Below, piece by piece: positions 8,329-39,584 of a stretch of DNA of 64,000 bases. How positions within the stretch are numbered: the stretch's first letter is position 1; every line of letters starts with the position of its first letter. This DNA is from Clostridia bacterium (lineage in GTDB: Bacteria; Bacillota; Clostridia; Christensenellales; QALW01). Position numbers and translations under genes: made by a program. The DNA lies in assembly GCA_045601365.1 (NCBI GenBank), contig JAZRZN010000002.1, positions 20,376 to 84,375 of the forward strand. Reading direction: 5' to 3'. The notes under the pieces are model-generated. The model was not told where the DNA came from and searched no databases. It worked only from the letters and a program-made list of their open reading frames with translations.

Positions 8329-9894
8329 ATGAAAAAGAACTTGCTTAGGCAGGCAATGTCCCTGTTGCTTGCGGCGGTGCTGGTAGCATCGTGTCTGTTT
8401 GCCATAAATGTGGCGGCAGAAGGGGAAAACATTGTACAGGGAACGACGGGAAGCATCAAATGGGTGTTGGATTTAGACAGATATGTGCTTACCTTAAGTG
8501 GCACAGGTGAAACAGACGGATACTATAATGCAATTAAGGGTTCGTTTTATGACAGACCTTGGCAAAACTATTTAGCGCACATTGAAAAAATTGTTGTAGA
8601 AGAAGGAGTTACAAGAATAGGCAGCGCTTGCTTTTGCGATTGCAACCAATTAGTATCGTTAAGTTTGCCGAGTTCACTTAAGAGCATCGGACGCGCAGCG
8701 TTTAGCAGTGATATACGTTTGGGAAGTATTGATTTGCCCAAAGGACTCACATCAATAGAACCATATGCATTTGAAAATTGCCAACGTTTGAGCGGAAAAC
8801 TAATTATTCCGGGAGTTCTTAATATTGGAGATACTGCTTTTTCAAATTGTACAGCCTTAACAGATGTAGTCATTTCACGCGGAACAATTTCGGTGGGCAG
8901 TGCCGCATTTGACGGTTGTACAAGTCTTAAAACCGTAACCTTGTCGCAAGGGGTTGTCAGCGTTGGCGAAAAAGCTTTCGGTAGTTGTTCCGCGCTTACC
9001 GATATCTATTACGGCGGAACTGAGGACGAGTGGAGCGATATTTCGATAAATGCTACGGGCAACCAATATTTCAATACCGCTACAAAGCATTTCAATGTTC
9101 ATGACCACAGATACATAACCGAGCGTGTTGAGCCGGATTGTACGCATACGGGTGCGGAGGTCAAAACCTGCGCCGAGTGCGGCGAAAAGATAACAAATAT
9201 CATCCCCGCGACAGGACATTTTTACGGCGAGGAGATCGAGGGTGTAAAGTCATGTATCGTCTGCGGACATGTTCAGGTGCATCCTGTTGAAATAACCGTC
9301 TGCGATGCGCGTGCCAATAAGGGACAGGTCAAAGTGCCGATAACACTTGATTATAACCCGGGGATATCGACCTTGCTTCTTAAGATAGGCTACGACAGCG
9401 AGGTATTCACGCTTTCGGAGGTCATCGACGGCGAAATACTCGGTGAAGCCGTTCACAGCGATAAGCTCACTGCCGACCCGTATACGCTTTCGTGGGAAAA
9501 CGACCTTTCGACCACGGATATTCCCGCTACGGGAGTTATCGCAACACTTGTGTTTGACATCAAAGAAGAAGCCGTGATGGGCAATTACAATATTACCGTA
9601 ACAAAGGGACAGGCGGCGAACAGTGCGCTTGAACTGTTCGAAACTTCATGCACCGACGGTACTGTGCGCTTCGATGCCAAGCTGATAGGCGATATCAATG
9701 ACGACGGCGAGGTCACACCTGCCGACAGAATGATGCTTTCGCGCTTCATCGCCGATTGGGATGGTTACGATACGACAACATGCAATATCCATGCCGCCGA
9801 TGTCAACGGTGACGGCGAGGTCGATGTCATTGACCGTATGATACTCGCGCGTTTCGTTGCCGATTGGGAAGATTATAAGGTATATTTTGAATAA
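8329..9894 (+). CDS. secreted BspA-type leucine-rich-repeat protein with cohesin-like domain and C-terminal type-I dockerin
   Basis: Signal peptide (MKKNLLRQAMSLLLAAVLVASCLFAINVAA). About 23-aa LRR units (IGxxAFxxCxxLxxVxLPxxL). A Cys-rich linker. Cohesin-like block (VKVPITLDYNPGISTLLLKIGYD...). Duplicated Ca-binding dockerin segments GDINDDGEVTPADRMML / ADVNGDGEVDVIDRMIL. Confidence 0.75.
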   Translation: MKKNLLRQAMSLLLAAVLVASCLFAINVAAEGENIVQGTTGSIKWVLDLDRYVLTLSGTGETDGYYNAIKGSFYDRPWQNYLAHIEKIVVEEGVTRIGSACFCDCNQLVSLSLPSSLKSIGRAAFSSDIRLGSIDLPKGLTSIEPYAFENCQRLSGKLIIPGVLNIGDTAFSNCTALTDVVISRGTISVGSAAFDGCTSLKTVTLSQGVVSVGEKAFGSCSALTDIYYGGTEDEWSDISINATGNQYFNTATKHFNVHDHRYITERVEPDCTHTGAEVKTCAECGEKITNIIPATGHFYGEEIEGVKSCIVCGHVQVHPVEITVCDARANKGQVKVPITLDYNPGISTLLLKIGYDSEVFTLSEVIDGEILGEAVHSDKLTADPYTLSWENDLSTTDIPATGVIATLVFDIKEEAVMGNYNITVTKGQAANSALELFETSCTDGTVRFDAKLIGDINDDGEVTPADRMMLSRFIADWDGYDTTTCNIHAADVNGDGEVDVIDRMILARFVADWEDYKVYFE

Positions 9895-13468: not shown

Positions 13469-14201
13469 CGTGCTGACGGTTTTTCCCGAAATGCTTAAGC
13501 CTATGATAGAAAGCAGTATTCTGGGCAGAGCCGTGAAAAACGGGCTTATCGAAATAGAGCTTGTCAATATACGCGATTTCAGCGATAAAAAGCACAAGAA
13601 TACCGACGATTATCCGTTCGGCGGGGGAGTGGGCATGCTCATGTTGCCGCAACCGATATTCGCCGCGTTCGAAAGCGTAAAAACGCCGGAGTGCATGAGC
13701 ATATACATGTCGCCGCAGGGCGAGGTGCTTTCACAACAGCTTGCAAAGGAGTTTTCCGAGCAAAAGCATCTTATAATCCTTTGCGGGCATTATGAGGGCG
13801 TGGATCAGCGCGTGCTTGATGCGCTTATCGACAAGGAGGTTTCGATAGGTGATTATGTTCTGACCGGCGGTGAGCTTGCCGCGCTTGTGGTGATAGATGC
13901 CACTGCACGCTTTATCGACGGCGTACTCGGAAGCGTTGACAGCGCATATGAGGACAGCTTTTCGGACGGACTTCTTGAAGCGCCGCAGTATACGCGTCCC
14001 GCTGAATTTATGGGAATGCGTGTGCCGGATGTGCTTCTTAACGGAAATCACGCACATATCGCGGCATGGCAACGCGAAATGCAGCTCCGCGTGACACTTC
14101 AAAAACGTCCCGAGCTTATTGAAAAAGCCGATTTGAGCAAGGAAGATAAAAAAATACTGAAAAAAATACTTGAAGAGCAAAAAAACGCTTGCGCAAAATA
14201 A
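13458..14201 (+). CDS. trmD: tRNA (guanine37-N1)-methyltransferase TrmD
   Basis: [12 protein letters not shown]..., GGGVGMLM and GHYEGVDQR motifs. ATG 13458 is preferred over TTG 13452. Confidence 0.95.
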
Positions 14202-14217
14202 AAAACTGTGGTATATT
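14189..14217 (+). promoter_or_regulatory. promoter for rplS with extended -10, followed by a ~75-nt leader
   Basis: TTGCGC (14189-14194), 17 nt, TGgTATATT (-10 at 14212-14217). The leader 14218-14293 may correspond to the L19 autoregulatory leader known in Firmicutes; its structure was not verified. Confidence 0.45.
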
Positions 14218-14293
14218 ATTACAGCATTACGGATGGTCCGCTCAGCCGTGTATATCCGAGCTGATGAACATCTATGATTATAGGAGAAATATT

Positions 14294-14635
14294 ATGGAAC
14301 TTATCAGAGCTATTGAAGCCGAACAGCTTCGTACCGACATCCCCGATTTCAATGTCGGCGACACCGTAAAGGTCATGGTAAAGGTAGTCGAGGGTACACG
14401 CGAGAGATTGCAGGCATTCGAAGGTACGGTTATCGCCCGTAAGAACGGCAGCACCCGTGAGACCTTCACTGTTCGCCGTGTTGCTTACGGCGTTGGCGTT
14501 GAACGTACGTTCCCCGTACATTCACCCAGACTCGGCAGCATCACGATCGTACGCAAGGGTCGCGTTCGCAGAGCAAAGCTTTATTATCTGCGTGACCGTA
14601 TCGGTAAGGCGGCAAAGGTCAAAGAGCTTCAGTAA
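14294..14635 (+). CDS. rplS: 50S ribosomal protein L19
   Basis: Start moved to ATG 14294 ([27 protein letters not shown]), which follows AGGAGA. The track start 14189 lies in the promoter/leader. Confidence 0.95.
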
Positions 14636-14645
14636 AAATACGAAA

Positions 14646-14682
14646 AGACAGTGTGTGCTTCCATGTACACACTGTTTTTTTG
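14646..14682 (+). terminator. rho-independent terminator of the ffh-rplS operon
   Basis: ACAGTGTGT (14648-14656) pairs with ACACACTGT (14666-14674), followed by T7. Confidence 0.8.
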
Positions 14683-14833
14683 CAATCTGCTGTAAAAAAG
14701 ATATACGGAGCGAACAGGCAGTATATCCGATTGAAAAAAGTTTTTTTGAAAAATATGCAACCGACGCTGTTAAAAAAACGCTTTATATGGTGTAAGGTCT
14801 TACAAAACGATTCACGGAAGGAGGTCAGGGCTT

Positions 14834-15394
14834 TTGGAAGATGACATGATCGTTCAGCTTTATATGGATCGCAATGAAAGCGCGATCCGTTTTTCGTCCG
14901 AAAAATACGGCTCCCGTCTGCGTGCATTGGCAATGGGCATCACTTCGGATTTCCAGATATCTGAAGAATGCGAGAATGATACATACCTGCAGGCATGGAA
15001 GCTTATTCCTCCCAATGAGCCGAGAACATATCTGTATGCTTTTCTTGCCAGTATCACACGGCATATTTCCATTGACTGCTGCCGTAAACGTGCAAGCCTG
15101 AAGCGCGGCGGATACATTGCGGAGCTGAGTAAAGAAATGGAAATGTGTCTGCCTGCATCGGAAAATGTTGAAAGCATAATCGCCGAAGAAGAGCTTGGTA
15201 AGGCGATCGGCAACTATCTTTATACGCTTTCACAGGAGAAACGGGTGATCTTTGTGCGCAGGTATTTTTATTTGGATTCTATCGCGGAAATAAGTAAAAG
15301 ATGTGCCGTCAGCGAAAGCAAGGTGAAATCGTCACTCTTTCGAATCCGCAATGATATCCGTAATTATTTGATCAAGGAGGGCTATACACTATGA
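14834..15394 (+). CDS. RNA polymerase sigma-70 family (ECF-type) sigma factor
   Basis: 186 aa. Region 2 (ECENDTYLQAWKLI) and region 4 HTH (LDSIAEISKRCAVSESKVKSSLFRIRNDI). TTG start 9 nt after AGGAGG. Confidence 0.8.
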   Translation: MEDDMIVQLYMDRNESAIRFSSEKYGSRLRALAMGITSDFQISEECENDTYLQAWKLIPPNEPRTYLYAFLASITRHISIDCCRKRASLKRGGYIAELSKEMEMCLPASENVESIIAEEELGKAIGNYLYTLSQEKRVIFVRRYFYLDSIAEISKRCAVSESKVKSSLFRIRNDIRNYLIKEGYTL

Positions 15395-16068
15395 AGAAAG
15401 AAAGAGCAATTTATTCTATGGAGCATATCGATCCGGATCTTATCAGTGAGGCTGAAAACTACAAAGGGGCAAAGAAAAGCAACATATGGATCAAATTGGG
15501 CGCGATAGCCGCCTGCCTGTGTTTGGTCGTCGGTTCGGTATTTGCGATCTCGTCTGTTGCAAATAACAAAAATGCGCTATACGGTGATGACAAAAACGCT
15601 GTTACGGCGGCAGGCGCTGGTGAAGATGAGAGCCGCGCAGGCAGTATGCCGGACGGTATTGACCCGATAGCAGCCAGTGTTGCAGTGTACCCTGCCGACA
15701 GAGAGCTTTCCGAGGTTGCCGATGCAACGATGGATGAAATAAATGAATCCGAGGCGAGAGCTACCGAGCTTGGACATCATTTTCCGACAACCGTTCCGGC
15801 AGGTTATCGCTTCAAAGTTGCAAGCATCTATGAGACGACCATGAAAGACGGAACAAAATACCGTCTTTTAAGGATCCGTTATACGAACGGGGATAGTTCG
15901 GATACTTCTGTTCATCCTGAAGAATTTTCTGTCCAGCTGACGGATTTCCGCCCGAACGCGAACAAAACGGTATATACGGTCGATTCGCTCCCGGATGTGT
16001 TCGTTGTATTCAATGTCGGGGCTTTAACGCATGACGAGATCATGTCGGTTTTGAGGTCAATTAACTGA
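15391..16068 (+). CDS. putative anti-sigma factor / single-pass membrane protein
   Basis: 4-nt overlap with the sigma gene. Short cytoplasmic N-terminus, one TM (IKLGAIAACLCLVVGSVFAI), extracytoplasmic C-domain. Function inferred from context only. Confidence 0.5.
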   Translation: MKKERAIYSMEHIDPDLISEAENYKGAKKSNIWIKLGAIAACLCLVVGSVFAISSVANNKNALYGDDKNAVTAAGAGEDESRAGSMPDGIDPIAASVAVYPADRELSEVADATMDEINESEARATELGHHFPTTVPAGYRFKVASIYETTMKDGTKYRLLRIRYTNGDSSDTSVHPEEFSVQLTDFRPNANKTVYTVDSLPDVFVVFNVGALTHDEIMSVLRSIN

Positions 16069-16117
16069 TAGCATGAGAACCCACCGAAAACGGCTGCTTT
16101 TCCGAAAAAATACCCGA

Positions 16118-16696
16118 TCACAAAAAAGCAGGGTAAAAAGCAGATGTAAGATACTCGCTTTGATTTATCACTTCGCGTGACACTATACTGTTCGTGTTAA
16201 GCTGACCTGCACTTTTAACTGTTATCGGCATTTCGGATGTGACATATACCATGATTATTCCGTCGGCGAGCGTGCTGTAGCTTCCGTTTTCGCCCGATGC
16301 GATGTTGTCTGCAAAAAATGAATAATGTACGGTCAGGTCAAATGGCCAGGCCGTGCTTTGCGGAGTGTTCATCTGCATGCTTACAGGAACATAAAGCGTT
16401 GCCGGAGCAGTACCGTTATTTCCCTGATAAACATATGTGAGTACGGCGGGAAGCTCAAGTGTTCCGCTGACGGCGGAAAAATCGGCATTGAATTGCGGAA
16501 TGATACTCAATGTGCTTCCGGCACTTATTTTTCCCGTGCTGCCGGCATAAAGCGGTGTTATATCCGGCAGAGCCGTCTGAACGGTCATCGCAAGACGGCG
16601 ACGGTCAAGATCCATGCGTACATTATCGAATATCCGCGGAGCGAGGAATGAAACGGTTGAAATATTATCGTTTATACCGCAGGTGGAACAAGACAT
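16118..16696 (-). CDS. hypothetical protein (192 aa, MSCSTCG N-terminus, beta-rich, no signal peptide)
   Basis: Good SD (AAGGGAG, 8 nt, ATG). No family recognised. Confidence 0.6.
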   Translation of the reverse strand: MSCSTCGINDNISTVSFLAPRIFDNVRMDLDRRRLAMTVQTALPDITPLYAGSTGKISAGSTLSIIPQFNADFSAVSGTLELPAVLTYVYQGNNGTAPATLYVPVSMQMNTPQSTAWPFDLTVHYSFFADNIASGENGSYSTLADGIIMVYVTSEMPITVKSAGQLNTNSIVSREVINQSEYLTSAFYPAFL

Positions 16697-16978
16697 AATA
16701 AAAACTCCCTTATGCGCTGAATTATTGTACTATAGTATATGCAGCGCCGATATGATATATGAAAGCGGAAATCCCGTAACGGAAGAACGTTGTCGCCGTG
16801 CCGAAGCTCAAGGTACGGCGACATTCATTTGCCGGCGGATACGGCTCGGTAAAGCTGTTTTGCATCATCATCCGCTGTTTTTTTGAATGCGGGCTTTTGC
16901 AATATTGAAATTTTGCCTGCAATTATACATTCCTTGTCGTCTTTATTCGTTTACAGCGGTAAAAATGCTTTACATTCT

Positions 16979-17007
16979 GCTTCAAATATGGTATTATATG
17001 CAATAAC
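16979..17007 (+). promoter_or_regulatory. promoter of the asd-dapA-dapB operon
   Basis: TTTACA (16979-16984), 17 nt, TGgTATTAT (-10 at 17002-17007). Confidence 0.5.
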
Positions 17008-17036
17008 GTATTGTATATTTATTATGCGAGGTCAAT

Positions 17037-18119
17037 ATGGAAAAGTTAAATGTAGGTATCATAGGTGCCACGGGCATGGTTGGTCAGCGTTTCATCACAC
17101 TGCTTGCCGATCATCCGTGGTTCAATGTGGTCGCACTTGCGGCAAGCGCACGCAGTGCCGGAAAAACATACAGAGAGGCTATCGGCTCACGCTGGGTAAT
17201 GGATACGCCTATCCCCGAAAAAATAGCCGATATGACCGTTTTTGAAGCCACCGAGGATGCCGAAAAGCTTGCTTCGATGGTTCAGGTAGTGTTCTGCGCG
17301 GTGGATATGCCCAAGGCAGACATCAGGGCTCTTGAAGAAAAGTATGCACGGCTTGAAGTCGCAGTCATCTCCAACAACAGTGCGCATCGCGGAACACCCG
17401 ATGTTCCCATGATAATCCCCGAGCTGAATGCGGATCATTCCGAGGTCATAACAGCACAGAAAAAACGTCTCGGCACGAAGCGCGGTTTCATCGCGGTAAA
17501 ATCCAACTGCTCGCTTCAAAGCTATGTTCCCGCACTTTTCCCGCTTTCAAAGTTCGGAATTACGAATGTGCTTGCCTGCACATATCAGGCCATCAGCGGC
17601 GCAGGAAAGACCTTTGAGCGTTGGCCGGAAATGGTAGATAACCTCATTCCGTACATCGGCGGAGAGGAAGAAAAGAGCGAAAACGAGCCTCTCAAAATAT
17701 GGGGTCATGTTGAAAACGGCGTGATCGTACCCGCGAAATCACCTAACATCACGACGCAGTGTCTGCGCGTGCCCGTAACAAACGGTCATACCGCGGCAGT
17801 GTTCGCAAGCTTTGAAAAGAAGCCCGCTATTGACGAAATAATCGACATATGGAAGAATTTCAAGGGTGATCCGCAGATATTCGGTCTGCCGCATGCGCCC
17901 AAGCAGTTCCTTAATTATTTCACCGAAAACGATCAGCCGCAGATACGCACATCCCGTGAGCTTGAGGGCGGTATGGCGATATCTATCGGTCGTTTGCGTG
18001 AGGATAAGCAGTACGACATCAAATTCGTCTGCATGTCACATAACACACTTCGCGGTGCGGCGGGCGGCGCAGTTCTTATGGCTGAATTGCTCGTGGCTCA
18101 GGGCTTTATAGAAAAGTAA
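17037..18119 (+). CDS. asd: aspartate-semialdehyde dehydrogenase
   Basis: 360 aa. GATGMVGQRF NAD(P) motif and active-site SNCSLQS. Confidence 0.93.
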   Translation: MEKLNVGIIGATGMVGQRFITLLADHPWFNVVALAASARSAGKTYREAIGSRWVMDTPIPEKIADMTVFEATEDAEKLASMVQVVFCAVDMPKADIRALEEKYARLEVAVISNNSAHRGTPDVPMIIPELNADHSEVITAQKKRLGTKRGFIAVKSNCSLQSYVPALFPLSKFGITNVLACTYQAISGAGKTFERWPEMVDNLIPYIGGEEEKSENEPLKIWGHVENGVIVPAKSPNITTQCLRVPVTNGHTAAVFASFEKKPAIDEIIDIWKNFKGDPQIFGLPHAPKQFLNYFTENDQPQIRTSRELEGGMAISIGRLREDKQYDIKFVCMSHNTLRGAAGGAVLMAELLVAQGFIEK

Positions 18120-18129
18120 GAGGTACAAT

Positions 18130-19017
18130 ATGAAAAAGACGGTTTTTACAGGTTCGGCAACAGCGCTCATTACACCGTTCACCGAAAACGGCGTTGATTT
18201 TGATGCGTTTGCGCGGCTTCTTGATTTCCAGATAGAAAACGGTACCGATGCACTTGTTGTGTGCGGCACTACGGGTGAACCGGCTACAATGACATATGAG
18301 GAGCGTGACGAGGTAGTCCGCTTTGCGGTAAAGCACGTCAATAAGCGTGTGCCCGTCATCGTCGGCACAGGCTCTAACGCCACTCATATTGCGGTAAGCA
18401 ATTCAAAAAAAGCTTTTGAAGCAGGCGCGGATGCCGTGCTTGTCGTTACGCCTTATTACAATAAATGCACGCAGGAGGGACTGTACCGCCACTTCAAGGC
18501 TGTATGCGAAGCCACGCCGTTGCCGGTAATATGCTATAATGTTCCGGGCAGAACGGGTGTGAACATCAAGCCGGAAACACTTGAGCGCATGGCAGAGCTT
18601 GATACGCTTTGCGCGGTCAAGGAAGCGAGCGGCAATATGGATCAGATAACCGATATCTGCGCTCGTCTTGCCGGCAAAATAGATGTATATTCGGGCGATG
18701 ACGGCATCGTATTGCCGATACTTTCCGTCGGCGGTAAGGGCGTTATCTCGGTTGCATCAAACATCGCGCCCAAGGAAGTACATAACATGTGTGCCGATTT
18801 CTTCTCCGGAAACTTCGATGCGGCGATGAAGATGCAGCTTAAGCTTTATCCGCTTGTAAAGGCACTGTTCTGTGAAGTAAACCCGATACCCGTCAAGACA
18901 GCGGCATCGCTGATCGGCTTCGGCAAGTGCAATCTGCGCATGCCGCTCTGTGACATGAGTGAAGCCGATCTTGCATATCTTAAAAAAGAAATGACCGCGT
19001 TCGGAATAAAATTTTAA
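18130..19017 (+). CDS. dapA: 4-hydroxy-tetrahydrodipicolinate synthase
   Basis: 295 aa. CGTTGEPATMT, YNVPGRTG and Schiff-base Lys context AVKEASGN. Confidence 0.95.
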   Translation: MKKTVFTGSATALITPFTENGVDFDAFARLLDFQIENGTDALVVCGTTGEPATMTYEERDEVVRFAVKHVNKRVPVIVGTGSNATHIAVSNSKKAFEAGADAVLVVTPYYNKCTQEGLYRHFKAVCEATPLPVICYNVPGRTGVNIKPETLERMAELDTLCAVKEASGNMDQITDICARLAGKIDVYSGDDGIVLPILSVGGKGVISVASNIAPKEVHNMCADFFSGNFDAAMKMQLKLYPLVKALFCEVNPIPVKTAASLIGFGKCNLRMPLCDMSEADLAYLKKEMTAFGIKF

Positions 19018-19032
19018 TTTTCGGAGATAAGT

Positions 19033-20247
19033 ATGTTAAGAATAATTCTTTCCGGCTGCATGGGCAAAATGGGTACCGCAGTAATAAACGAAGTAGCAAA
19101 AAACGATAATTTCACGATCTGCGCGGGTGTGGATAAAATGGCTTCGTCAGCCGTCGGATACGATTTTCCTGTTTTCAACGATATCCACAAATGCGATATT
19201 GAGGCGGATGTCATCATCGATTTTTCGCGTCCCGACGCATTGCCGATGCTTCTGCGCTATGCTCAGGCAAAGCGTCTTCCGCTCGTGCTTGCTTCTACGG
19301 GGTACAATAAGAACGATATCCAATCAATAAACTTTGCTTCGGAAACGATACCGATAATGTGTTCGTCGAATATGTCGCTCGGCATAAATATGCTCAAACA
19401 GTTGGCATCCACGGCATCGGCGGCACTGAACAACAATTTCGATATAGAGATAATCGAAAAGCACCATAACACCAAGGTCGATTCGCCGTCAGGCACCGCC
19501 ATTATGCTTGCCGAGGCGATAAACGACGCGGCAGGCGGTGATCTTGAATTTGTATTCGACCGCCACGAACGCTCCATGGCGCGCCCGAAGCGTGAGCTTG
19601 GCATACATGCTCTGCGCGGCGGCACGATCCCCGGCGATCATACGATAGTTTTTGCCGGTCAGGATGAGGTGATCGAACTTACTCACAGAGCGTACTCGCG
19701 CAAAATATACGTTCCGGGCGCGTTGCGTGCGGCGGAATTTATACGTTCATTCCCGTGCGGCTTGTATAATATGAGTGCGTTGCTCACGCAACAACAGATA
19801 ATAACAGGGACATATTATTCCGAAAACGACATACTTATTTCGGTAAGCGGCATCAGGTCACCGAAGCTGATAAGCGATATATTTGTTTCACTCAAGGAAT
19901 CCGACATCATGGTCGATATCATCAGCCAACCGCTTCCCGTGAACGGCGAATATACACTTTCGTTCTCGATATCGAAGAACCTGGCTGAAAAGGCAGAACG
20001 CATCATTTCCGATCTGCTTGACGGCGAAAAGCTTGATATACGCGACGATATCGTAAAAGTTACCGTTGAGGGCAGCGGTATGGAGCATCATGCAGGTGCG
20101 GCAGGTGACGTATTAAGCACACTGTCGGGACTTGATATTCCCGTTCTGCTCATCACTACAAGTGAAACTAAGATAACCTGCTGTATCCCGAGTGAATTTG
20201 CTCAAAAAGCGCTCACAGCCCTTAAGGAGAAGAGAGAAGATATTTAA
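19033..20247 (+). CDS. dapB: 4-hydroxy-tetrahydrodipicolinate reductase fused to a C-terminal aspartokinase-type ACT domain pair
   Basis: aa 1-250 are DapB (GCMGKMGTAV, EKHHNTKVDSPSGTA, RGGTIPGDHTIVFAG). aa ~255-404 resemble the AK regulatory ACT pair (VKVTVEGSGMEHHAGAAGDVLSTLSGLDIPVLLITTSETKITCCI). Confidence 0.85.
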   Translation: MLRIILSGCMGKMGTAVINEVAKNDNFTICAGVDKMASSAVGYDFPVFNDIHKCDIEADVIIDFSRPDALPMLLRYAQAKRLPLVLASTGYNKNDIQSINFASETIPIMCSSNMSLGINMLKQLASTASAALNNNFDIEIIEKHHNTKVDSPSGTAIMLAEAINDAAGGDLEFVFDRHERSMARPKRELGIHALRGGTIPGDHTIVFAGQDEVIELTHRAYSRKIYVPGALRAAEFIRSFPCGLYNMSALLTQQQIITGTYYSENDILISVSGIRSPKLISDIFVSLKESDIMVDIISQPLPVNGEYTLSFSISKNLAEKAERIISDLLDGEKLDIRDDIVKVTVEGSGMEHHAGAAGDVLSTLSGLDIPVLLITTSETKITCCIPSEFAQKALTALKEKREDI

Positions 20248-21362
20248 TGGCAGATGAAAGAATAAAACTGCTTGCACGCAAGCTTGTTGAATATTCATGC
20301 CGCATTCAAAAAGGCGAAAACTGCCTTATCGAACTGTACGGTAATGATGAAACACTTGCAAAAGAGATAGTCAAGGCCGTAAAAACAGCGGGCGGAAATC
20401 CGTTTTTGTGGCTTCGTTCCGAAAAGCTCAACCGTGCGCTTATTTCAGGCGAAACCGAGGAATCGCTCAGGCTTCGCGCCGAAAACGATGCGGCTTTGAT
20501 GGCACAAATGGATGCATATATCGGTATCCGCGCATCGCTCAACAGCTTTGAAATGAGCGATGTTCCGCAAAAAGACCTTGAGAATTACAACAAGCTATAT
20601 TGGGAACCCGTTCACGGTGCATTGCGCGTGCCCAAGACAAAATGGGTGATACTCAGATACCCCAATGATTCGATGAGCCAGCTTGCGCGGATGTCCACCG
20701 AAGCATTTGAGGATTTCTTTTTCAATGTTTGCACACTCGATTACGCCAAAATGAGTGAAGCAATGACACCGCTCGTTGAGCTTATGAACAAAACCGACAA
20801 GGTGCGCATTGTTGCAAAGGATACGGATATTTCGTTTTCGATCAAGGGAATACCTGCCGTCAAGTGCGACGGGCTTTGCAATATTCCCGACGGCGAAGTC
20901 TACACCGCGCCTGTCAAAGACAGCGTGAACGGTTATATTACTTACAATACTCCGTCGCTTGAGGATGGCTTCACATATGACAACATCCGTTTTGAGTTCA
21001 AAAACGGCAAAATAGTCAACGCTACATCAAACGATAACGAGCGGCTCAACGCCATTCTCGATACCGATGAGGGCGCACGGTATGTGGGTGAGTTCTCGTT
21101 CGGACTGAACCCGTACATCAATACCGCCATTCTTGATACGCTTTTTGATGAAAAAATAGCCGGCAGCATTCATTTTACGCCCGGCTCATGCTATGATGAC
21201 GCGCCGAACGGCAATTATTCCGCAGTGCATTGGGATCTGGTGCAGATACACACCCCCGAGTACGGCGGCGGTGAAATTTGGTTTGACGGCGTGCTTATCC
21301 GCAAAAACGGAGTTTTTGTTCTTGATTCGCTCAAGGGCTTGAATCCCGAAAATCTGAAATAA
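20247..21362 (+). CDS. M29-family aminopeptidase (AmpS/PepS-like)
   Basis: 371 aa. DGEVYTAPV, GEFSFGLNP and LFDEKIAGSIHFTPG family pattern. Confidence 0.8.
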   Translation: MADERIKLLARKLVEYSCRIQKGENCLIELYGNDETLAKEIVKAVKTAGGNPFLWLRSEKLNRALISGETEESLRLRAENDAALMAQMDAYIGIRASLNSFEMSDVPQKDLENYNKLYWEPVHGALRVPKTKWVILRYPNDSMSQLARMSTEAFEDFFFNVCTLDYAKMSEAMTPLVELMNKTDKVRIVAKDTDISFSIKGIPAVKCDGLCNIPDGEVYTAPVKDSVNGYITYNTPSLEDGFTYDNIRFEFKNGKIVNATSNDNERLNAILDTDEGARYVGEFSFGLNPYINTAILDTLFDEKIAGSIHFTPGSCYDDAPNGNYSAVHWDLVQIHTPEYGGGEIWFDGVLIRKNGVFVLDSLKGLNPENLK

Positions 21363-21365
21363 CGC

Positions 21366-21401
21366 ACTGTGCGGGGGATGTGTCCCCGCACTTCTTTTTT
21401 T
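21366..21401 (+). terminator. rho-independent terminator after the aminopeptidase gene
   Basis: GTGCGGGG (21369-21376) pairs with CCCCGCAC (21384-21391), followed by cTTCTTTTTTT. Confidence 0.8.
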
Positions 21402-21441
21402 ACGGGAACGATGTTCCCGGATATCTGCTTTTTTACCTTGC

Positions 21442-21480
21442 AAAAAAAATATCCGCACGGCTATCAAACCGAGCGGATAT
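21442..21480 (-). terminator. terminator of the GH2 gene (minus strand)
   Basis: ATATCCGC (21449-21456) pairs with GCGGATAT (21473-21480). The A8 run at 21442-21449 reads as a T-run on the minus strand. Confidence 0.65.
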
Positions 21481-21512
21481 TTTGATTTCCGGCGAAATTG
21501 TTTTTACGGAAA

Positions 21513-24290
21513 TTATTTTTTCAGATTATCGACCACTCTTACATAGTCTCTCATGCCGCCGACGCCCGCCTTATTGTCCTCATCAAGATATGTAAGTATC
21601 CTTATTTCGGCTTGCTTGCCCGGCTCGGCGCAGAAGGGATAGCGGCTCGTATGGACTATGCTCCCGAACGGCACATACTCTTCAAAAATTTTAACGCCGT
21701 CAACATATATCTCAATGCCGCTCAAGCATGTATTTCCGAATTCAAGCACAAACGGAAGCTTTTCGTCTGCATTTTTCGACATTGGCGGAATATTGACAAA
21801 GGCTCTGTAAAGCCGCCAGCCGTTCATGTAGTCCTTGGGAAATTCCGTCGTTATCTCGGTCGGGATGAGAGTATTGTTATCGTCTGCCGCTATATACATG
21901 AGCGGATCGGGCTTTTTATGCACCGTAGGCGTATAGCCGAGCTTGCGGATATTTCTGTCGATATTACTGCTTTCAAGGTAATCGTTTTTTTCTACATGCA
22001 CTATTTCCGGCACGAACACCGCTTCTTCAAGCTTTTCACCGTACGCCCTGACCGAAATCTCTTTTGCGTTCTGCTTTGCGCGGACTATCAGCTGGCATTT
22101 GCCGCAATACGCCTTACGCTCGGGGATATTGTCGGCTTCGTGGCTGTTCGGATCACCGTTGCCGCATCCGAGGAACACCGCATCGCCGGAAATATCGAAT
22201 TTTATCAAATTATCGGCATACGGTACTTCGATACCGCGTTCATCCGTAACCGATACATTTATTATCATCGCGTCCTTGCCGCTGTCATCGACGGCGTTTT
22301 TGAACGCTTCAAGCACGATCTTCTTTGCCTTATGTGCCGTGCGGCGTTCATCCTTGGCAACGCATTTGCCGTTCTTATACGCCTTGACGCTTATCCTGCC
22401 GGGAACGAACTCAACGTTCCACTCCGCGGGAGCGCAGATATCCGACGGCTTTCTGCCCATCGACTTGCCGTTGACGAACAGCTCAGCCTCATCGCAGTTG
22501 CTGACTGCCACCACGCGCACCGTGTCGCCCTTGTTCCAATTCCAGTGCGGAAGCAGATGCACTATCGGCTTATCTGTGAAGCAGGCTTTGTTGTAATAGA
22601 ACGAATCCTTTGCAAAGCCGCAGGTGTCCATTATGCCGAACTGTGACGAAACGCTCGGCCATACGAACGGTGTAGGCTCGCCGCGATAGTCAAATCCCGT
22701 CCAGATGAATATTCCCGCGAACCACGGATGCTTGCGCACAAAATCCCACGTTTCGCGCACGGTCTGACCCCACGGCACGACCTCCTCATCGTAATTGTTA
22801 AGCAGATGCTTGTCCTCTCTGTCGGAAGCATAACAGCCGCGGGTAGTGACCGCACTGTTGCTTTCCGAGCCGATAAACGCAAGCTCCGGGTATTCACTGC
22901 GGTACTTTTCAAGCAGGTTGACGCTGTAATTTATGCCCGTTACGTCCATCTCAAGCCCTGCGCCCGCAGGCGTTCCGTTTATCGCACCCATAACGAATCT
23001 TGAATCGTCAAGGTGATCCACGACGCTTCTCATTTTTCTGAATATCCTTGCGCCCTCATCGGTATTCTGGAGCGGCTCTTCGTTGAACAGCGACCAGAAC
23101 ACTACCGACGGGTGATTTCTGTCGCGCTTGACCATCGCTTCAACATAGCCAAGCACCTCTTCGCGTGTCTCGAATCTGCGGTTTTCGTCCATGACGATAA
23201 GTCCAAGCTCATCACATAAGTCCAAAACCTCTCTTGTGGGGAGATTGTGCGACGCGCGGTAGGCATTCACGCCCATTTCCTTTAACCGCTTTATGCGATA
23301 ATACTGCACGGAATCGGGGATCGCCACGCCTACGCCCGCATGATCCTGATGATTGCATGTGCCCTTGACCTTGATGTTTTTGCCGTTGAGCCAAAAACCC
23401 GTGTCCTTATCAATGGCGATAGTTCTGAAGCCTATCCTGCACGAATCGGAATCGACTTCCCTGCCGTCCTTAAGCACGGTCACCTTTACCGTATAGAGAT
23501 ACGGCGAATCAATGTCCCAACGCTTCGGTTTGGAAACATTCAGCTTCTGCTTTACCGTTGCTTTCGATGTAAAATCCACATTTACGGGGCTTGATACGCT
23601 TTGTGCGATGAGCTGTTCACCGTCGAATATCTCCGTGCGAACAGACGCGCACTGAGGCACGAAATCAGAATTTTCGACCTCCGTTTCAAGCTCTGCCGTC
23701 CACGAATTTTTTGTTCCTTTTTTAAGAACGGGCTTTGCAAAAATGCCGTTATGCGCGATATGCAGTTTATCCTTGGCATACATATGCACATGGCGGTAGA
23801 TGCCTGCGCCCTCATACCACCAGCCCTCATAGGCAGTACCGATTATATGCACGGCAAGCACGTTCGGGCGACCGTCGAAATACGCACGTTCGGTGACATC
23901 GAACACGGTCTCGGCATATGCGCTGAACGAGCGCGCAATGAGCGAACCGTTGAAATAAAATTCGGCATTGACGCTCGTACCGTCAAAGCAAATGAGTATC
24001 TGTCTGTCCGAAAGCTCGGGCTCGAGCATGAACGCCTTTCTGTACCATCCGTTACACTGTTCACGGTAGCCGTGCGAACGGCTGTAGGATGCGTCAAAGC
24101 CGCTTGCGGTAATATAATCGTGCGGCAGATCGACCTCACACCAATCGGATGTATCAAGCTCTATCGCACCTCCGCCGACAGCATTGCCGGATTTCACCAC
24201 ATACGATTCCGGGCGTCCGGCGGCATTTTTGTCGATAGGCTCACCGCGGAAGAAAAGCCACGCTTTATCCATATCATAATTTATACGCAT
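21513..24290 (-). CDS. glycoside hydrolase family 2 (beta-galactosidase/beta-glucuronidase-like)
   Basis: GH2 sugar-binding, Ig-like and TIM-barrel order. Acid/base region NHPSVVFWSLFNEEP. Start moved to ATG 24290 (MRINYDMDKAW), 9 nt after GGGAG. Confidence 0.9.
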   Translation of the reverse strand: MRINYDMDKAWLFFRGEPIDKNAAGRPESYVVKSGNAVGGGAIELDTSDWCEVDLPHDYITASGFDASYSRSHGYREQCNGWYRKAFMLEPELSDRQILICFDGTSVNAEFYFNGSLIARSFSAYAETVFDVTERAYFDGRPNVLAVHIIGTAYEGWWYEGAGIYRHVHMYAKDKLHIAHNGIFAKPVLKKGTKNSWTAELETEVENSDFVPQCASVRTEIFDGEQLIAQSVSSPVNVDFTSKATVKQKLNVSKPKRWDIDSPYLYTVKVTVLKDGREVDSDSCRIGFRTIAIDKDTGFWLNGKNIKVKGTCNHQDHAGVGVAIPDSVQYYRIKRLKEMGVNAYRASHNLPTREVLDLCDELGLIVMDENRRFETREEVLGYVEAMVKRDRNHPSVVFWSLFNEEPLQNTDEGARIFRKMRSVVDHLDDSRFVMGAINGTPAGAGLEMDVTGINYSVNLLEKYRSEYPELAFIGSESNSAVTTRGCYASDREDKHLLNNYDEEVVPWGQTVRETWDFVRKHPWFAGIFIWTGFDYRGEPTPFVWPSVSSQFGIMDTCGFAKDSFYYNKACFTDKPIVHLLPHWNWNKGDTVRVVAVSNCDEAELFVNGKSMGRKPSDICAPAEWNVEFVPGRISVKAYKNGKCVAKDERRTAHKAKKIVLEAFKNAVDDSGKDAMIINVSVTDERGIEVPYADNLIKFDISGDAVFLGCGNGDPNSHEADNIPERKAYCGKCQLIVRAKQNAKEISVRAYGEKLEEAVFVPEIVHVEKNDYLESSNIDRNIRKLGYTPTVHKKPDPLMYIAADDNNTLIPTEITTEFPKDYMNGWRLYRAFVNIPPMSKNADEKLPFVLEFGNTCLSGIEIYVDGVKIFEEYVPFGSIVHTSRYPFCAEPGKQAEIRILTYLDEDNKAGVGGMRDYVRVVDNLKK

Positions 24291-37211: not shown

Positions 37212-37346
37212 TTTGAATCACCCGAGAAAATAATATCAGAAAATAGCCGGATTTTCAATAGTAAATTTCCGCAAAATGCTATTTTTCTTAAATTTGCGAT
37301 TTACTTTTGCCCAAAAGAGTATTAAAATCGTTTTGAGGTGACGGTT

Positions 37347-39584
37347 ATGGAAACATTCAAAAATGAACTTTATGATTTTTATTTGAATAAAATCGACGGT
37401 ATGGCTGACAGCTTTGCCGAAAAAATGTTTGTACTGCTCGATTCTTTTGTTTCGCCGGATATGAACGGATATCAGCGTAAGGCTTTACAGTATAAAACTA
37501 TCGCGGAACATGCAGAGCCGATACTGTTTCATACATCTCCGTTCTACCATGAGCTTGGCACGATGATAGCGGTTTGCGACGGATGCGGTTCTTTCCACGG
37601 ACACAAACACGCGGGCGGTTGGAATTTTGCACGATACGGTCATTTGTATTCGGAGCTTGAGCCCGAGCTGATGAAATTAAAAAACAAACAGGCGGAAAGC
37701 CTGCTGTACTTGATTTGCGGACCGTTCAGCGACTGCATGCAGCATTTTATGTTCAACTGCAAGCCGGTATTTGCGGGCGGACTTAAGGCTCTTTATGAGG
37801 AAGCAATAGCACGGTCTGCCGACGCAAAGGGGATAGAAAAGGATTTTTTGGATTCCGCTGTTGAAGGCTTGCTTGCAATGAAGCGGATATCGGAAAAGTT
37901 TTCAAAAAAAGCACTTAAAATGGTTGAGGGCGCAACCGGTGAGGAAAGAAAAAATCTGTTGCGCATAGCGGATGCATCATCGTATACGCCGTGGAATGCA
38001 CCGCGCAGTTTTTATGAAGCACTCAACACACTTGCTTTCACACGAACCGTATGCGGCGCACTTGAGGGAGTGGGGTATAATACCTTCGGGCGACCCGATG
38101 TTGAGCTTTTTCCGTTTTATAAGCACGATATCGAAAACGGCTTGCTTACAAAAGACGAAGCATATGACTTGATCTGCAAATTCCTTTTGACGTGGGATCT
38201 TCATTACGATCATGATATGAAGATGGTGGGATATGCCGATCATGAGCTGGAAAACACATATACGCTCGGCGGATGTGACGAAAACGGTGAGCCTGTGTGG
38301 AATGAGCTGACGGAAATGTTCCTGCGTGCAACACGCGAGCATAAGATAATTTTTCCTAAAATCAAGGTGCGCTTTTCGGCAAATTCGCCGAAGGAATACC
38401 TTGACGCAATAAACGAAAGCGTGATAAAGGGCACTACGGTGGTGCTTTACCAAAATGACGATGCCGCTGTTCCGGCACTTGTCAACGCCGGATTTTCACT
38501 GAAAGATGCGCGTGACTATATCGTTACAGGTTGTTGGGGGCTGATGACGAACGGCAATTTCATGGACGACCACGGCAATTATGTAAATCTTTTGAAGGCG
38601 TTCGAGTATTCCGTTCACGACCTGAAAGAACAAAGCAAGTATGCGGAAATAGATTTTCTCCCGTTCGATGGCGCAAAAAGCTTCGATGAAGTATACGATA
38701 TAACGCTCGAAAATTGCAAGAAACTGTTTCGTGCGCGTAACCGCATCACGCTTGAGGGTAAACCCTTGTGGCATATGACAGACCCCGTGCCGCTGACATC
38801 GGCTTCAATGGATGATTGTCTTAAAAATAAAAAAGACCTGACGAACGGCGGGTGTAAATATCACAACGAACACTATCAGTGTGTGGGATTTCCGAATATA
38901 ATAGATTCGTTGCTTGCCATTAAGACGCTGTGCTTCGATGAAAAGAAGTATTCGCTTGCGGAGCTTCTTGCGGCGGTGAGAAATAATTGGAAAAACTGCG
39001 ATATAATGCGGGCGGATGCGATGCACTGCCATTGCTGGGGCGATGAAAGCAAGGAATCGTCTGCTCTTGCGCAAAGATTCAACCATGACCTGTATGTTGC
39101 ACTCGGTGAGATTGAAACACTGTGGGACGGGGGACGGATAGACCTCGGGCATCTGACGTATACGGAAATAAGATTCTGGGGCGAAAAGACGCTTGCAACG
39201 CCCGACGGGCGCAAAAACGGAGATTACTTTTCGCAGGGGCTGACACCGTCAAGATTGCACAGCATACCGAATGTCACATCCGTTGTAAACAGCCTCAAGG
39301 CGCTTGATGCGCGCGAAATGGCGGGGAATACCGTGGTCAATATAATCCTCCCGTCAAATAAGATGTCGCTTGATAACTGCGAGGCTTTTTTGCGGGCATG
39401 CGCCAATACGTCGATGCTTTCGTTGCAGCTCAATTGCGTAACGAAAGAAGAACTGCTTGATGCGCAAAAGCATCCCGAAACGCATCGCGATCTTATAGTT
39501 CGCGTCTGCGGATTCTCGGCACGCTTTACGAGCCTTTCACCCGAATGGCAGGCGGAAGTGCTTTCGCGGAATTTCTATGATTAA
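37347..39584 (+). CDS. glycyl radical enzyme, PFL2/dehydratase-like family, unknown substrate
   Basis: C-terminal glycyl-radical motif DLIVRVCGFSARFTSLSPEWQ. Candidate thiyl loop RDYIVTGCWGLM. Start ATG 37347 follows GAGGTGA. Confidence 0.8.
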   Translation: METFKNELYDFYLNKIDGMADSFAEKMFVLLDSFVSPDMNGYQRKALQYKTIAEHAEPILFHTSPFYHELGTMIAVCDGCGSFHGHKHAGGWNFARYGHLYSELEPELMKLKNKQAESLLYLICGPFSDCMQHFMFNCKPVFAGGLKALYEEAIARSADAKGIEKDFLDSAVEGLLAMKRISEKFSKKALKMVEGATGEERKNLLRIADASSYTPWNAPRSFYEALNTLAFTRTVCGALEGVGYNTFGRPDVELFPFYKHDIENGLLTKDEAYDLICKFLLTWDLHYDHDMKMVGYADHELENTYTLGGCDENGEPVWNELTEMFLRATREHKIIFPKIKVRFSANSPKEYLDAINESVIKGTTVVLYQNDDAAVPALVNAGFSLKDARDYIVTGCWGLMTNGNFMDDHGNYVNLLKAFEYSVHDLKEQSKYAEIDFLPFDGAKSFDEVYDITLENCKKLFRARNRITLEGKPLWHMTDPVPLTSASMDDCLKNKKDLTNGGCKYHNEHYQCVGFPNIIDSLLAIKTLCFDEKKYSLAELLAAVRNNWKNCDIMRADAMHCHCWGDESKESSALAQRFNHDLYVALGEIETLWDGGRIDLGHLTYTEIRFWGEKTLATPDGRKNGDYFSQGLTPSRLHSIPNVTSVVNSLKALDAREMAGNTVVNIILPSNKMSLDNCEAFLRACANTSMLSLQLNCVTKEELLDAQKHPETHRDLIVRVCGFSARFTSLSPEWQAEVLSRNFYD

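Follow-up and report, generated by a model that had tools for sequence, protein, structure and literature searches.

The stretch of DNA analysed here (hereafter the window) comprises 64,000 nucleotides of a contig from a gut or rumen Clostridia bacterium and contains an asd-dapA-dapB operon, in which the gene in the dapB position encodes a complete DapB joined to a pair of ACT domains of the aspartokinase (AK) type (Table 1). This fusion gene is the sole dapB of the operon, and the start of an M29-family aminopeptidase gene overlaps its stop codon. The hairpin at the end of this gene group is the sole strong terminator-like site past the operon. Upstream of the operon we found no riboswitch, as no Rfam family matched at E <= 0.1 in positions 14000-22000, and the asd leader is too short to hold one. 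The initial annotation had remarked that the operon lacks an AK gene; this proved to be true of the whole window, where the only ORF with an AA_kinase fold (61007-61729) encodes a UMP kinase.

Table 1. Features of the asd-dapA-dapB::ACT-ACT region, in window coordinates
Feature	Position	Strand	Evidence
Promoter-like site, TTTACA-17-TATTAT with extended TG, ~40 nt upstream of asd	16969..16997	+	consensus scan only
asd, aspartate-semialdehyde dehydrogenase, 360 aa	17037..18119	+	Pfam Semialdhyde_dh, Semialdhyde_dhC
dapA, 4-hydroxy-tetrahydrodipicolinate synthase, 295 aa	18130..19017	+	Pfam DHDPS, 314 bits
dapB::ACT-ACT fusion gene, 404 aa + stop	19033..20247	+	Pfam/NCBIfam, structure model, homologues
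DapB half, residues 1-251 (DapB_N 1-114, DapB_C 117-251)	19033..19785	+	domain profiles, conserved motifs, Foldseek
Junction, residues 252-265	19786..19827	+	ORF reading, structure model
ACT1, residues 266-337	19828..20043	+	alignment, structure model
ACT2, residues 338-404	20044..20244	+	Pfam, alignment
M29-family aminopeptidase gene, start overlaps dapB::ACT stop (ATGA)	20247..21362	+	
Intrinsic-terminator-like hairpin (9-bp stem, 7 G-C pairs) + T-run	21369..21401	+	

A complete DapB joined to a tandem ACT module

The segment 19783-20247 corresponds to residues 251-404 and the stop codon of the fusion ORF, and residues 252-404 form a tandem ACT1-ACT2 of the class II AK regulatory or beta-subunit type. 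The 404-aa dapB ORF had been described in the initial annotation as an entire reductase followed by an ACT-like pair, a description with which the Pfam, NCBIfam and PDB matches and an AlphaFold2 model all agree; the two sequence strings cited there do occur in the ORF. The domain profile search proposed there detected DapB_N (PF01113; residues 3-114, 90 bits), DapB_C (PF05173; residues 117-251, 144 bits), ACT_9 (PF22468; 67.3 bits over two stretches) and ACT_7 (PF13840; residues 336-399, 34.3 bits), each above its own gathering score, which is 27 for both ACT_9 and ACT_7. Over residues 1-251 the NCBIfam model TIGR00036 (dapB) scored 204.5 bits against a curated equivalog cutoff of 122, and the PDB sequence matches of this half were DapB chains. 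The likening of the ACT pair to the C-terminus or beta subunit of AKs was equally borne out: residues 252-400 aligned with positions ~249-399 of the 407-position aspartate kinase models (best NF005155, E = 3.6e-23) and matched the class II AK regulatory or beta chains 3l76, 2re1, 2dt9, 2dtj, 5yei and 3s1t. The AK models reached 67-82 bits, well under their cutoffs of 208-376, and no AA_kinase (PF00696) match was present in the fusion protein; in the PDB sequence search no entry spanned the DapB and ACT halves together. The AlphaFold2 model shows two ACT units in its predicted secondary structure, with pLDDT >90. Its pTM over the entire chain, 0.80, is above our rough estimate of ~0.6 for two independently placed modules, which suggests that DapB and the ACT pair adopt a defined arrangement in the model.

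Residues 1-251 carry all the motifs of canonical DapBs (E. coli 1ARZ, V. vulnificus 5US6, S. aureus 3QY9, T. maritima 1VM6). The GxxGxxG nucleotide-binding motif (G8/G11/G14) is the same in all 106 family members compared, the window protein among them, and so is the catalytic and substrate motif E139..E142-x-H144-H145-x-x-K148-x-D150-x-P-S-G-T-A, with no variation among the 106 at E142, H144, H145, K148, D150, P152, S153, G154, T155 and A156. A Foldseek comparison of the model with DapB structures gave target-normalised TM values of 0.87-0.90 with an rmsd of ~2 Å (0.87-0.88 for the ligand-bound ones). As all catalytic and cofactor motifs are retained, the DapB half is predicted to be catalytically intact, and the operon context is consistent with this predicted reductase activity. 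Canonical DapBs lack a regulatory domain and stop at a GLY(D/N)MxDxL tail, whereas the window protein runs 153 residues further. The junction comes after the native DapB C-terminal tail, here GLYNMSALL, and includes a strand (residues 259-263) which by AK topology completes ACT2.

The occurrence, in other genomes, of split versions with an intervening stop codon might suggest that a frameshift or mis-assembly had joined dapB to a downstream ACT gene in the window, an artefact against which the initial annotation had warned. We regard this possibility as practically negligible. The reading frame is uninterrupted, with neither a stop codon nor a frameshift at the junction; a gapless, 92%-identical homologue of 404 aa, differing from the window protein mostly by conservative changes, lies on a separate NCBI contig; and the best 120 homologues, down to 40% identity, are all ~400 aa long and share the same four Pfam domains. 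AlphaFold2 is moreover confident across the junction, and the fused architecture was found in >100 clusters from NCBI, ENA, JGI and Logan assemblies, including the genomes of Caldicoprobacter isolates.

No Shine-Dalgarno motif was found 5' of any in-frame start at the junction. M247 was considered as an internal start and rejected, for this near-invariant Met belongs to the ordinary DapB tail (GLYxMxD) and likewise has no such motif ahead of it. Since the junction Met has no ribosome-binding site, the module of the window is expected to be made solely as part of DapB. A 163-aa protein, P0156, which is 64% identical to the module, was similarly discarded as a standalone protein: it begins exactly at the tail Met and is identical to the tail of the fused protein P0005, which identifies it as a truncated gene call.

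Two elements of ACT2 hardly vary: an AK-type ligand loop, K342-x-x-x-E346-G347-x-G349-M350-x4-G355 (nt 20056-20097), and a strand, I374-T-T-S-E-T-K-I381 (nt 20152-20175). Their counterparts in the C. glutamicum AK are M354 and T380-S381-E382. ACT1 has a degenerate beta1-alpha1 loop that is missing the AK motif 'PDxPGxAA'; its conserved residues are F284, D295, I297, S298, Q299 and P302, with Q299 at the position of C. glutamicum Q298. Of the feedback-resistance positions of the C. glutamicum enzyme, Q298, M354 and T380-S381-E382 are retained in the module and D274, G277, A279 and N374 are not, the retained ones being conserved also among AKs of differing effectors. The mean pairwise identity among 106 fusion proteins is 40% in the ACT half and 53% in the DapB half, and the ACT half is, as judged from these alignments, under constraint. 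The ACT1 loop that binds threonine in the C. glutamicum AK is not conserved, and the Gly-x-Gly of ACT2 is lost in the split-form family described below, so that ligand binding by the module is not guaranteed.

Fused and split forms of the dapB-linked module

How far the fusion has spread was a question raised by the initial annotation. Clustering at 50% identity gave ~50-60 clusters that span the DapB/ACT junction, and the survey also revealed the module as a separate gene 3' of dapB. In this split form, present in many Oscillospiraceae/Clostridiales, a plain dapB that closes with a stop codon of its own is followed, at a distance of -4 to +45 nt, by an ACT-ACT gene of 152-168 aa, which in several cases is preceded by a clear Shine-Dalgarno motif. 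The form was counted in 11 genome loci and 3 further family members (n=14), all of which have the gene order asd-dapA-dapB-ACT with varying flanking genes; split ACT-ACT genes as a whole amount to hundreds of clusters. The module is thus linked strictly to dapB, and not to an AK gene, in 14/14 split and 9/9 fused loci, and no fusion of the module to asd or dapA was seen in the sampled data. The alternation of fused and split forms is a Rosetta-stone pattern that, on comparative grounds, ties the module to DapB, and this link is strengthened by the presence of the separate gene immediately 3' of dapB in so many relatives. The unit of interest is therefore the dapB-associated ACT-ACT protein, whether fused or split. 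A literature search found no description of a DapB-ACT fusion or of a dapB-linked ACT protein, and the separate dapB-adjacent ACT-ACT gene is a new observation of this analysis.

In a tree of DapB domains the fused, split and plain forms interleave in a patchy distribution, implying that the module was often gained or lost without obvious consequence. No residue signature of DapB was common to the fused and split forms as opposed to plain DapBs, the top-scoring columns being specific to fused clades; as a result, the sequences give no sign of a common docking surface. Most split-form operons already have a lysine riboswitch, so a second lysine sensor would not be strictly needed in them.

This patchy spread, together with the degenerate ligand loop of ACT1 and the loss of Gly-x-Gly from ACT2 in the split family, could be taken to mean that the module is a structural relic of an AK that the dap operon has lost, kept for the oligomerisation, stability or solubility of DapB and devoid of effector regulation. 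We consider this improbable, given that K342, E346, G347, G349, M350, G355, T375-T379 and Q299 remain conserved at 40% identity, which is beyond what the fold needs, and that the independent translation of the split gene in hundreds of clusters is unexpected for a mere stabilising appendage.

Origin of the module and its relation to aspartokinases

The class II AK origin of the module is shown by the alignments. Like the regulatory subunit or domain of class II alpha2beta2 AKs (C. glutamicum LysC-beta 2DTJ/3AAW, T. thermophilus 2DT9, M. tuberculosis 3S1T, P. aeruginosa 5YEI, Synechocystis 3L76), it consists of a tandem ACT1-ACT2 of ~150 aa, alignable end to end and with the same predicted order of secondary-structure elements, and it keeps the G-x-G-M...G-V-A loop, the T-S-E strand and the Gln matching that of C. 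glutamicum. In contrast to these subunits, with which it shares 24-44% identity, it accompanies DapB, attached or as a neighbouring gene, in place of an amino-acid kinase domain, it has lost the 'PDxPGxAA' threonine-site loop of ACT1, and it comes from the 3' part of dapB or from a gene of its own after dapB, not from an internal in-frame start in lysC. The AKs closest to it are clostridial enzymes of class II that pass NF005154/NF005155. A neighbour-joining tree of ACT modules placed the fused and split forms adjoining AKs of the type found at one plain-dapB locus, L029, with weak bootstrap values for the fused group (47) and for fused plus split (37) and a strong one for the split clade (93). 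Together with the interleaved tree of DapB domains, these values do not establish a single origin of the dapB-linked module.

At L029 an AK of this nearest type lies directly after dapB, and an SD-like AAGGAG precedes its internal Met246, at the position of a beta start. This arrangement suggests that the module arose through loss of the kinase half of such an AK. No AK was found within 8-10 kb of ~23 fused or split loci, nor in the window, and a tblastn search with five AK catalytic probes over the window and 95 loci (1.54 Mb) identified AKs in three plain-dapB loci only (L012, L029 and L040).

Since its homology to the regulatory domains and beta subunits of class II AKs extends over its full length, the module might itself be a beta-type regulatory subunit of an AK, paired with the ACT domains of a class II alpha subunit whose gene lies elsewhere, or with an AK that has lost its own ACT region; the fusion would then tether DapB to AK, or the dap operon would control the supply of the AK regulatory subunit. 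The clostridial NF005154/NF005155-type of the closest AKs and the L029 arrangement agree with this possibility, as does the JGI annotation of the split proteins as 'aspartokinase'. No AK is encoded nearby, so the partner would need to act in trans. We judge the possibility unlikely: a genuine beta subunit has the very sequence of its alpha subunit's C-terminus, far from the 24-44% identity found here, the linkage is strictly to dapB, and were AK the partner, there would be little reason for a DapB fusion to stay stable through divergence to 40% identity. For the window gene in particular, the lack of a Shine-Dalgarno motif before the starts at the junction, and hence of an internal translation start, speaks against the alternative offered in the initial annotation, in which the gene would provide an AK beta-like subunit in trans.

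Proposed regulation of DapB

In textbook accounts, control of lysine and diaminopimelate (DAP) synthesis is exerted on aspartokinase, on DapA and through lysine riboswitches, and DapB is normally regarded as unregulated; to our knowledge there is no report of allosteric feedback regulation of DapB. An amino-acid-responsive, allosteric DapB is nevertheless the best-supported reading of the present comparisons, and on balance we lean towards the ACT-ACT pair being an allosteric module dedicated to DapB, with copies paired across the tetramer. Under this proposal a catalytically intact DapB (4-hydroxy-tetrahydrodipicolinate reductase) would bear at its C-terminus a regulatory element of its own, built-in here and a small separate subunit in many relatives. 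We infer that in the homotetramer the ACT-ACT modules of two protomers would form pairs of the kind made by isolated AK beta subunits, creating effector-binding units, and that an aspartate-family end product would bind chiefly at the conserved glycine-rich loop of ACT2, the candidates being lysine in the first place, then meso-diaminopimelate and threonine. The nucleotide-binding domain carries the module, and binding would alter the freedom of this domain to close on the substrate domain, so that the DAP/lysine branch would be throttled at its second committed step.

Feedback-regulated enzymes of amino-acid metabolism, such as SerA, homoserine dehydrogenase and AK, as a rule carry their ACT domain at the C-terminus (PMC4142519, PMC9728202). 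SerA and the Gram-positive homoserine dehydrogenase are the closest analogy for a possible mode of action, as they too are oligomeric, NAD(P)-dependent Rossmann-fold oxidoreductases with a C-terminal ACT, and in them ACT domains of separate protomers form pairs to which the end product of the pathway binds (PMC9728202 for homoserine dehydrogenase). They differ from the fusion protein in catalytic fold and reaction and in having one ACT instead of two of the AK type, and the regulation of DapB is a proposal. The split form resembles acetohydroxyacid synthase, where the gene of a small ACT regulatory subunit, IlvN/IlvH, follows that of the catalytic subunit (PMC5727371); the ACT-ACT protein, encoded directly after a catalytic gene, is presumed to be a regulatory subunit as well, although it has a different catalytic partner and no specific sequence kinship with IlvN/IlvH past the ACT fold, the one ACT_AHAS_ss match being marginal and limited to a single split protein.

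The module could also sense an amino acid and yet control Asd, DapA or, in the subfamily of the window, the M29 aminopeptidase, or be a general amino-acid binder, the fusion reflecting adjacency only. The conserved unit is indeed the whole asd-dapA-dapB-ACT operon, and in this subfamily translation of the peptidase gene is coupled to that of the fusion gene. Gram-positive DapA is generally lysine-insensitive, so its control could come in trans. We hold this to be very unlikely, since the module is always beside or fused with dapB, with no asd or dapA fusion among the sampled data, and since the M29 gene, kept 3' of dapB::ACT only in the window's own subfamily, is missing from most of the fused and split loci.

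A broader form of the proposal seems to us possible, if somewhat short of probable, namely that the module is an undescribed regulatory subunit of DapB, evolved from the AK beta subunit and either fused or separate after dapB in Clostridia and a few Spirochaetes, which would make DapB a feedback-controlled point of the pathway. In a more radical variant, the AK-derived module would physically couple DapB to AK, bringing the first and fourth steps of the pathway together in one regulated complex. If the proposal is true, many gut, rumen and thermophilic Clostridia use a different control point, made from the recycled regulatory half of an AK, and the module represents a clean natural case in which a regulatory domain has passed from one enzyme to another within the same pathway. 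This would bear on the engineering of lysine/DAP flux in Clostridia and might provide a new ligand-sensing module for biosensors; it would also give a function to hundreds of entries named 'ACT domain-containing protein' or mislabelled 'aspartokinase'.

A DapB joined to an aspartokinase-type ACT pair

The third gene of the asd-dapA-dapB operon is an uninterrupted ORF of 404 aa that contains both peptide strings quoted in the initial annotation, where a DapB fused to an aspartokinase (AK)-type ACT module had been proposed. The observation is confirmed, since Pfam, NCBIfam, PDB, AlphaFold2 and Foldseek results agree at these coordinates. The domain HMM search recommended there found DapB_N (residues 3-114), DapB_C (117-251), ACT_9 (in two stretches) and ACT_7 (336-399), all above gathering scores. 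Residues 1-251 correspond to the dapB equivalog TIGR00036 (NCBIfam; 204.5 bits vs a cutoff of 122) and matched DapB chains in the PDB; residues 252-400 align to positions ~249-399 of the 407-position aspartate kinase models of NCBIfam, the best being NF005155 and NF005154, and matched in the PDB only regulatory domains or beta subunits of class II (alpha2beta2-type) AKs (3l76, 2re1, 2dt9, 2dtj/3aaw, 5yei and 3s1t/4go5). No solved structure among the PDB matches spans both halves. A confident AlphaFold2 model (mean pLDDT 93.6, pTM 0.80) was obtained from 106 family members, and Foldseek matched its first half to DapB (TM 0.87-0.90 normalised to target) and the remainder to class II AKs. The claimed architecture, a complete DapB plus an AK-type ACT pair in one ORF, is thus borne out: the protein belongs to the DapB family on score, motifs and fold, and its ACT domains are genuine. 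It cannot be classed as an AK, because neither Pfam nor NCBIfam detected an amino-acid-kinase catalytic domain in it, nor is its module a true AK beta subunit, being neither an internal lysC product nor identical to an alpha-subunit C-terminus. The structural interpretation is therefore supported, and the functional one, an amino-acid-regulated DapB, is plausible.

A frameshift or assembly artefact, the concern raised in the initial annotation, is extremely improbable as the source of the fusion. A 92%-identical 404-aa homologue on a different NCBI contig aligned without gaps across the junction, and the best 120 homologues in a collection of 5.8 billion proteins, down to 40% identity, all share its four Pfam domains and a length of ~400 aa. 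The suggested survey revealed a widespread fusion: a junction-spanning query of 205 aa retrieved 167 proteins at E <= 1e-10 from 1.84 billion 50%-identity representatives, and ~50-60 of the matches listed align across the junction. Among the named carriers are cultured thermophiles (Caldicoprobacter oshimai, C. faecalis and C. algeriensis), alongside other Caldicoprobacterales, Christensenellaceae, MAGs labelled "Clostridia/Clostridiales/Eubacteriales bacterium" and two MAGs of Spirochaetes; the annotation of the gene is only 4-hydroxy-tetrahydrodipicolinate reductase in every case. The Spirochaete genes (L005, a Spirochaetaceae MAG, and L008, Spirochaetae bacterium HGW-Spirochaetae-7) fall inside a clostridial fused clade of the DapB tree, suggestive of horizontal transfer or a binning error. 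In fused DapBs the second beta strand of the nucleotide-binding domain is also followed by a short insertion (window residues ~37-40), absent from DapBs encoded without a fused module, whether or not an ACT gene follows. At the C. oshimai locus (L004) a HEARO RNA (Rfam RF02033, 162 bits), unrelated to the fusion, was detected.

Fused, split and plain dapB loci

A sample of dapB loci from GTDB species genomes, re-analysed at the ORF level, resolved into three states. Plain dapB was the majority among the sampled loci (Ruminococcus flavefaciens included), and the fused state was found in the window, L003-L008 and similar loci. In the split state (n = 11, among them L084, the isolate Clostridiales bacterium NK3B98) a dapB of 251-259 aa has its own stop codon, and a second ORF of 152-168 aa, composed of Pfam ACT_9, ACT and ACT_7, starts -4 to +45 nt after it, in several cases preceded by an obvious Shine-Dalgarno motif. 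This ACT-ACT protein, named "ACT domain-containing protein" by NCBI and "aspartokinase" by JGI, is a real family with 543 homologues at E <= 1e-5, the best 120 of which are uniformly 145-179 aa long. Three further members, 54-60% identical and in unrelated neighbourhoods, again showed the order asd-dapA-dapB-ACT, and all 14 standalone genes examined lie directly 3' of dapB. The loci of the family include L085-L090, its hosts being Oscillospiraceae/Clostridiales; in its members the Gly-x-Gly loop of ACT2 is replaced (e.g. Y/F-D-E-x-M), while M, P-G-V-A-A and T-T-S-E are retained.

Alternation between fused and adjacent genes is the classic Rosetta-stone signature of proteins that work together, and on this genomic pattern it links the module with DapB rather than with an enzyme from another locus. 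That the module is a sensor acting on another product of the operon appears quite unlikely. The finding is thus wider than was first noticed: a dapB-associated, AK-derived ACT-ACT family, fused or split across Clostridia.

Operon setting and origin of the module

A promoter-like site lies ~40 nt before asd, and the only strong terminator after the operon is 3' of the gene for an M29 peptidase; the transcription unit is therefore probably asd-dapA-dapB::ACT-M29. These four genes are kept together in relatives with 65-70% identical fusions and different flanks. The M29 gene is directly downstream in the window's own subfamily (L091-L095), not in other fused or split loci; in that subfamily a peptidase would be co-transcribed with lysine/DAP biosynthesis genes. 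A 192-aa ORF divergent from the operon has no Pfam match.

Coordinates of the features and loci discussed (window positions unless a locus is named)
Feature	Position	Strand	Remark
521-aa repeat protein gene	8329-9894	+	
192-aa ORF	16118-16696	-	
asd	17037-18119	+	upstream of dapA and fusion gene
dapA	18130-19017	+	precedes fusion gene
dapB::ACT-ACT fusion gene	19033-20247	+	
Insertion of fused DapBs	~19141-19152		
M29 aminopeptidase gene	20247-21362	+	start overlaps fusion-gene stop codon (ATGA)
Terminator	21369-21391		
Glycyl-radical enzyme gene	37338-39584	+	
UMP kinase gene	61007-61729		
dapB-AK locus	L029 10001-12120		
HEARO RNA	L004 1036-1258	-	
Split loci (n = 11)			L009, L010, L011, L016, L030, L044, L045, L058, L068, L081, L084
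Lysine riboswitch, split loci	upstream of asd		L009, L011, L016, L030, L044, L058, L068, L081, L084, L086, L087, L089
Lysine riboswitch, fused loci	upstream of asd		L003, L004

The absence of an AK gene from the operon, noted initially, extends to the whole window, where a UMP kinase was the only match when the large ORFs were searched with Pfam and NCBIfam and the DNA with AK catalytic probes (tblastn); none was found within 8-10 kb of ~23 distinct fused or split loci either. Of 14 split loci, 12 have a lysine riboswitch upstream of asd, vs two of eight assessable fused loci; in the window and its closest subfamily this position has none. RNA-level lysine control and ACT fusion may thus be inversely related, the numbers being small.

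The closest AK relative of the fused modules is a 401-aa clostridial class II enzyme at L029, to whose regulatory half they are 29-44% identical (64-133 bits), consistently closer than to C. glutamicum LysC; class I AKs gave only fragmentary matches. The L029 AK scores as a member of NF005154 and NF005155, which are also the best-matching models for the module. At this locus, in a Clostridiaceae MAG, a plain dapB is followed by a ~160-nt gap, the full-length AK and argG. The AK lacks the usual ACT1 "PDxPGxAA" loop and has an SD-like AAGGAG ~12 nt before Met246, a putative beta-subunit start located where class II lysC genes start theirs. Because this nearest AK directly follows dapB, in the slot of the split ACT gene, we propose that an ancestral dapB-lysC(alpha/beta) adjacency would have lost its kinase-coding part, leaving dapB and an ACT-ACT gene, and that loss of the stop codon would then have produced the fusion. 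An NJ tree of the modules placed fused and split forms as sister groups beside L029-type AKs, with weak support for fused (47%) and fused plus split (37%) and 93% for split; the trees are compatible with kinase loss without proving it. In the DapB-domain tree the three states interleave, which implies that fusion, fission, loss or transfer happened several times.

This ancestry would suit a module that still serves an AK in trans. Such a role is unlikely, however, for a module that is linked to dapB alone, has stayed fused to it over a long time, resembles AKs only at low identity and has no internal start. M247, at the junction, is part of the normal DapB tail and no ribosome-binding site precedes it, so in the window the module is most likely never translated separately from DapB.

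Candidate ligand site and proposed mode of action

Both halves look functional. Among the 106 sequences the DapB motifs GxxGxxG (G8, G11, G14) and E-x-HH-xx-K-x-D-x-PSGTA are invariant. The ACT half is less conserved (mean pairwise identity 40% vs 53%), yet clearly constrained, as judged from the alignment: K342, G347, M350, G355 and T376 of ACT2 are invariant, and E346, G349, T375, S377, E378, T379 and I381 of ACT2 and F284, D295, I297, S298, Q299 and P302 of ACT1 are at least 90% conserved. We take Q299, M350 and T376-S377-E378 to be the equivalents of Q298, M354 and T380-S381-E382 of C. glutamicum LysC. The numbering of the LysC sequence used for this mapping agrees with published mutation sites and the PDB alignment. 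Mutation of Q298 or S381 deregulates feedback inhibition of LysC (review table, PMC10464499). Since the ACT2 residues are conserved and the ACT1 loop residues D274, G277 and A279 of LysC are not, the module probably has one good predicted effector site, in ACT2.

A non-regulatory structural remnant would agree with an ACT1 loop that is degenerate and a distribution that is patchy, but we consider it improbable because the predicted ligand-site residues are conserved and the split gene has been kept as a cistron of its own.

DapB enzymes are homotetramers whose catalysis needs the nucleotide-binding domain to close onto the substrate-binding domain, and in the E. coli and M. tuberculosis structures the C-terminus returns to this mobile domain. 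Crystals of isolated class II AK beta subunits reportedly contain dimers that bind the effector where ACT1 and ACT2 meet (2dtj, 2dt9, 3s1t). On grounds of economy we somewhat favor a module dedicated to DapB: two ACT-ACT modules of one tetramer would pair up, an aspartate-family end product would bind their conserved ACT2 site, and binding would restrict or promote domain closure. The full-chain pTM exceeds our own rough estimate of ~0.6 for two freely linked modules, which hints at a defined DapB-ACT arrangement. The ligand is not readable from sequence; lysine, as the end product of the pathway, is the leading candidate, with meso-DAP and threonine as alternatives. E346, a family-specific acidic residue beside the Gly loop (Val in AKs), might, speculatively, engage a basic or second amino group of the ligand.

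By analogy, the window protein most plausibly works like SerA or Gram-positive homoserine dehydrogenase (Hom), dehydrogenases controlled by C-terminal ACT domains that bind serine and threonine, respectively; the split form is nearest to acetohydroxyacid synthase, a catalytic subunit plus an ACT small subunit. To our knowledge, DapB is not known to be regulated, and no description of a DapB-ACT fusion or dapB-linked ACT protein was found in open-access papers or bioRxiv, nor any structure among the PDB and Foldseek matches. ACT-regulated amino-acid biosynthetic enzymes are a known kind; what is new is such a module on DapB.

Elsewhere in the window, a 521-aa protein combines BspA-type leucine-rich repeats with cohesin and type I dockerin domains, which indicates a cellulosome/amylosome-type, Ruminococcaceae-like organism; a large dockerin protein is also encoded in a relative's neighbourhood (L094). 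The 25-45 kb region holds AraC-family regulators beside several carbohydrate-related genes, ordinary gut-anaerobe content, and a glycyl-radical enzyme with PFL-like and Gly_radical domains is encoded in the window.
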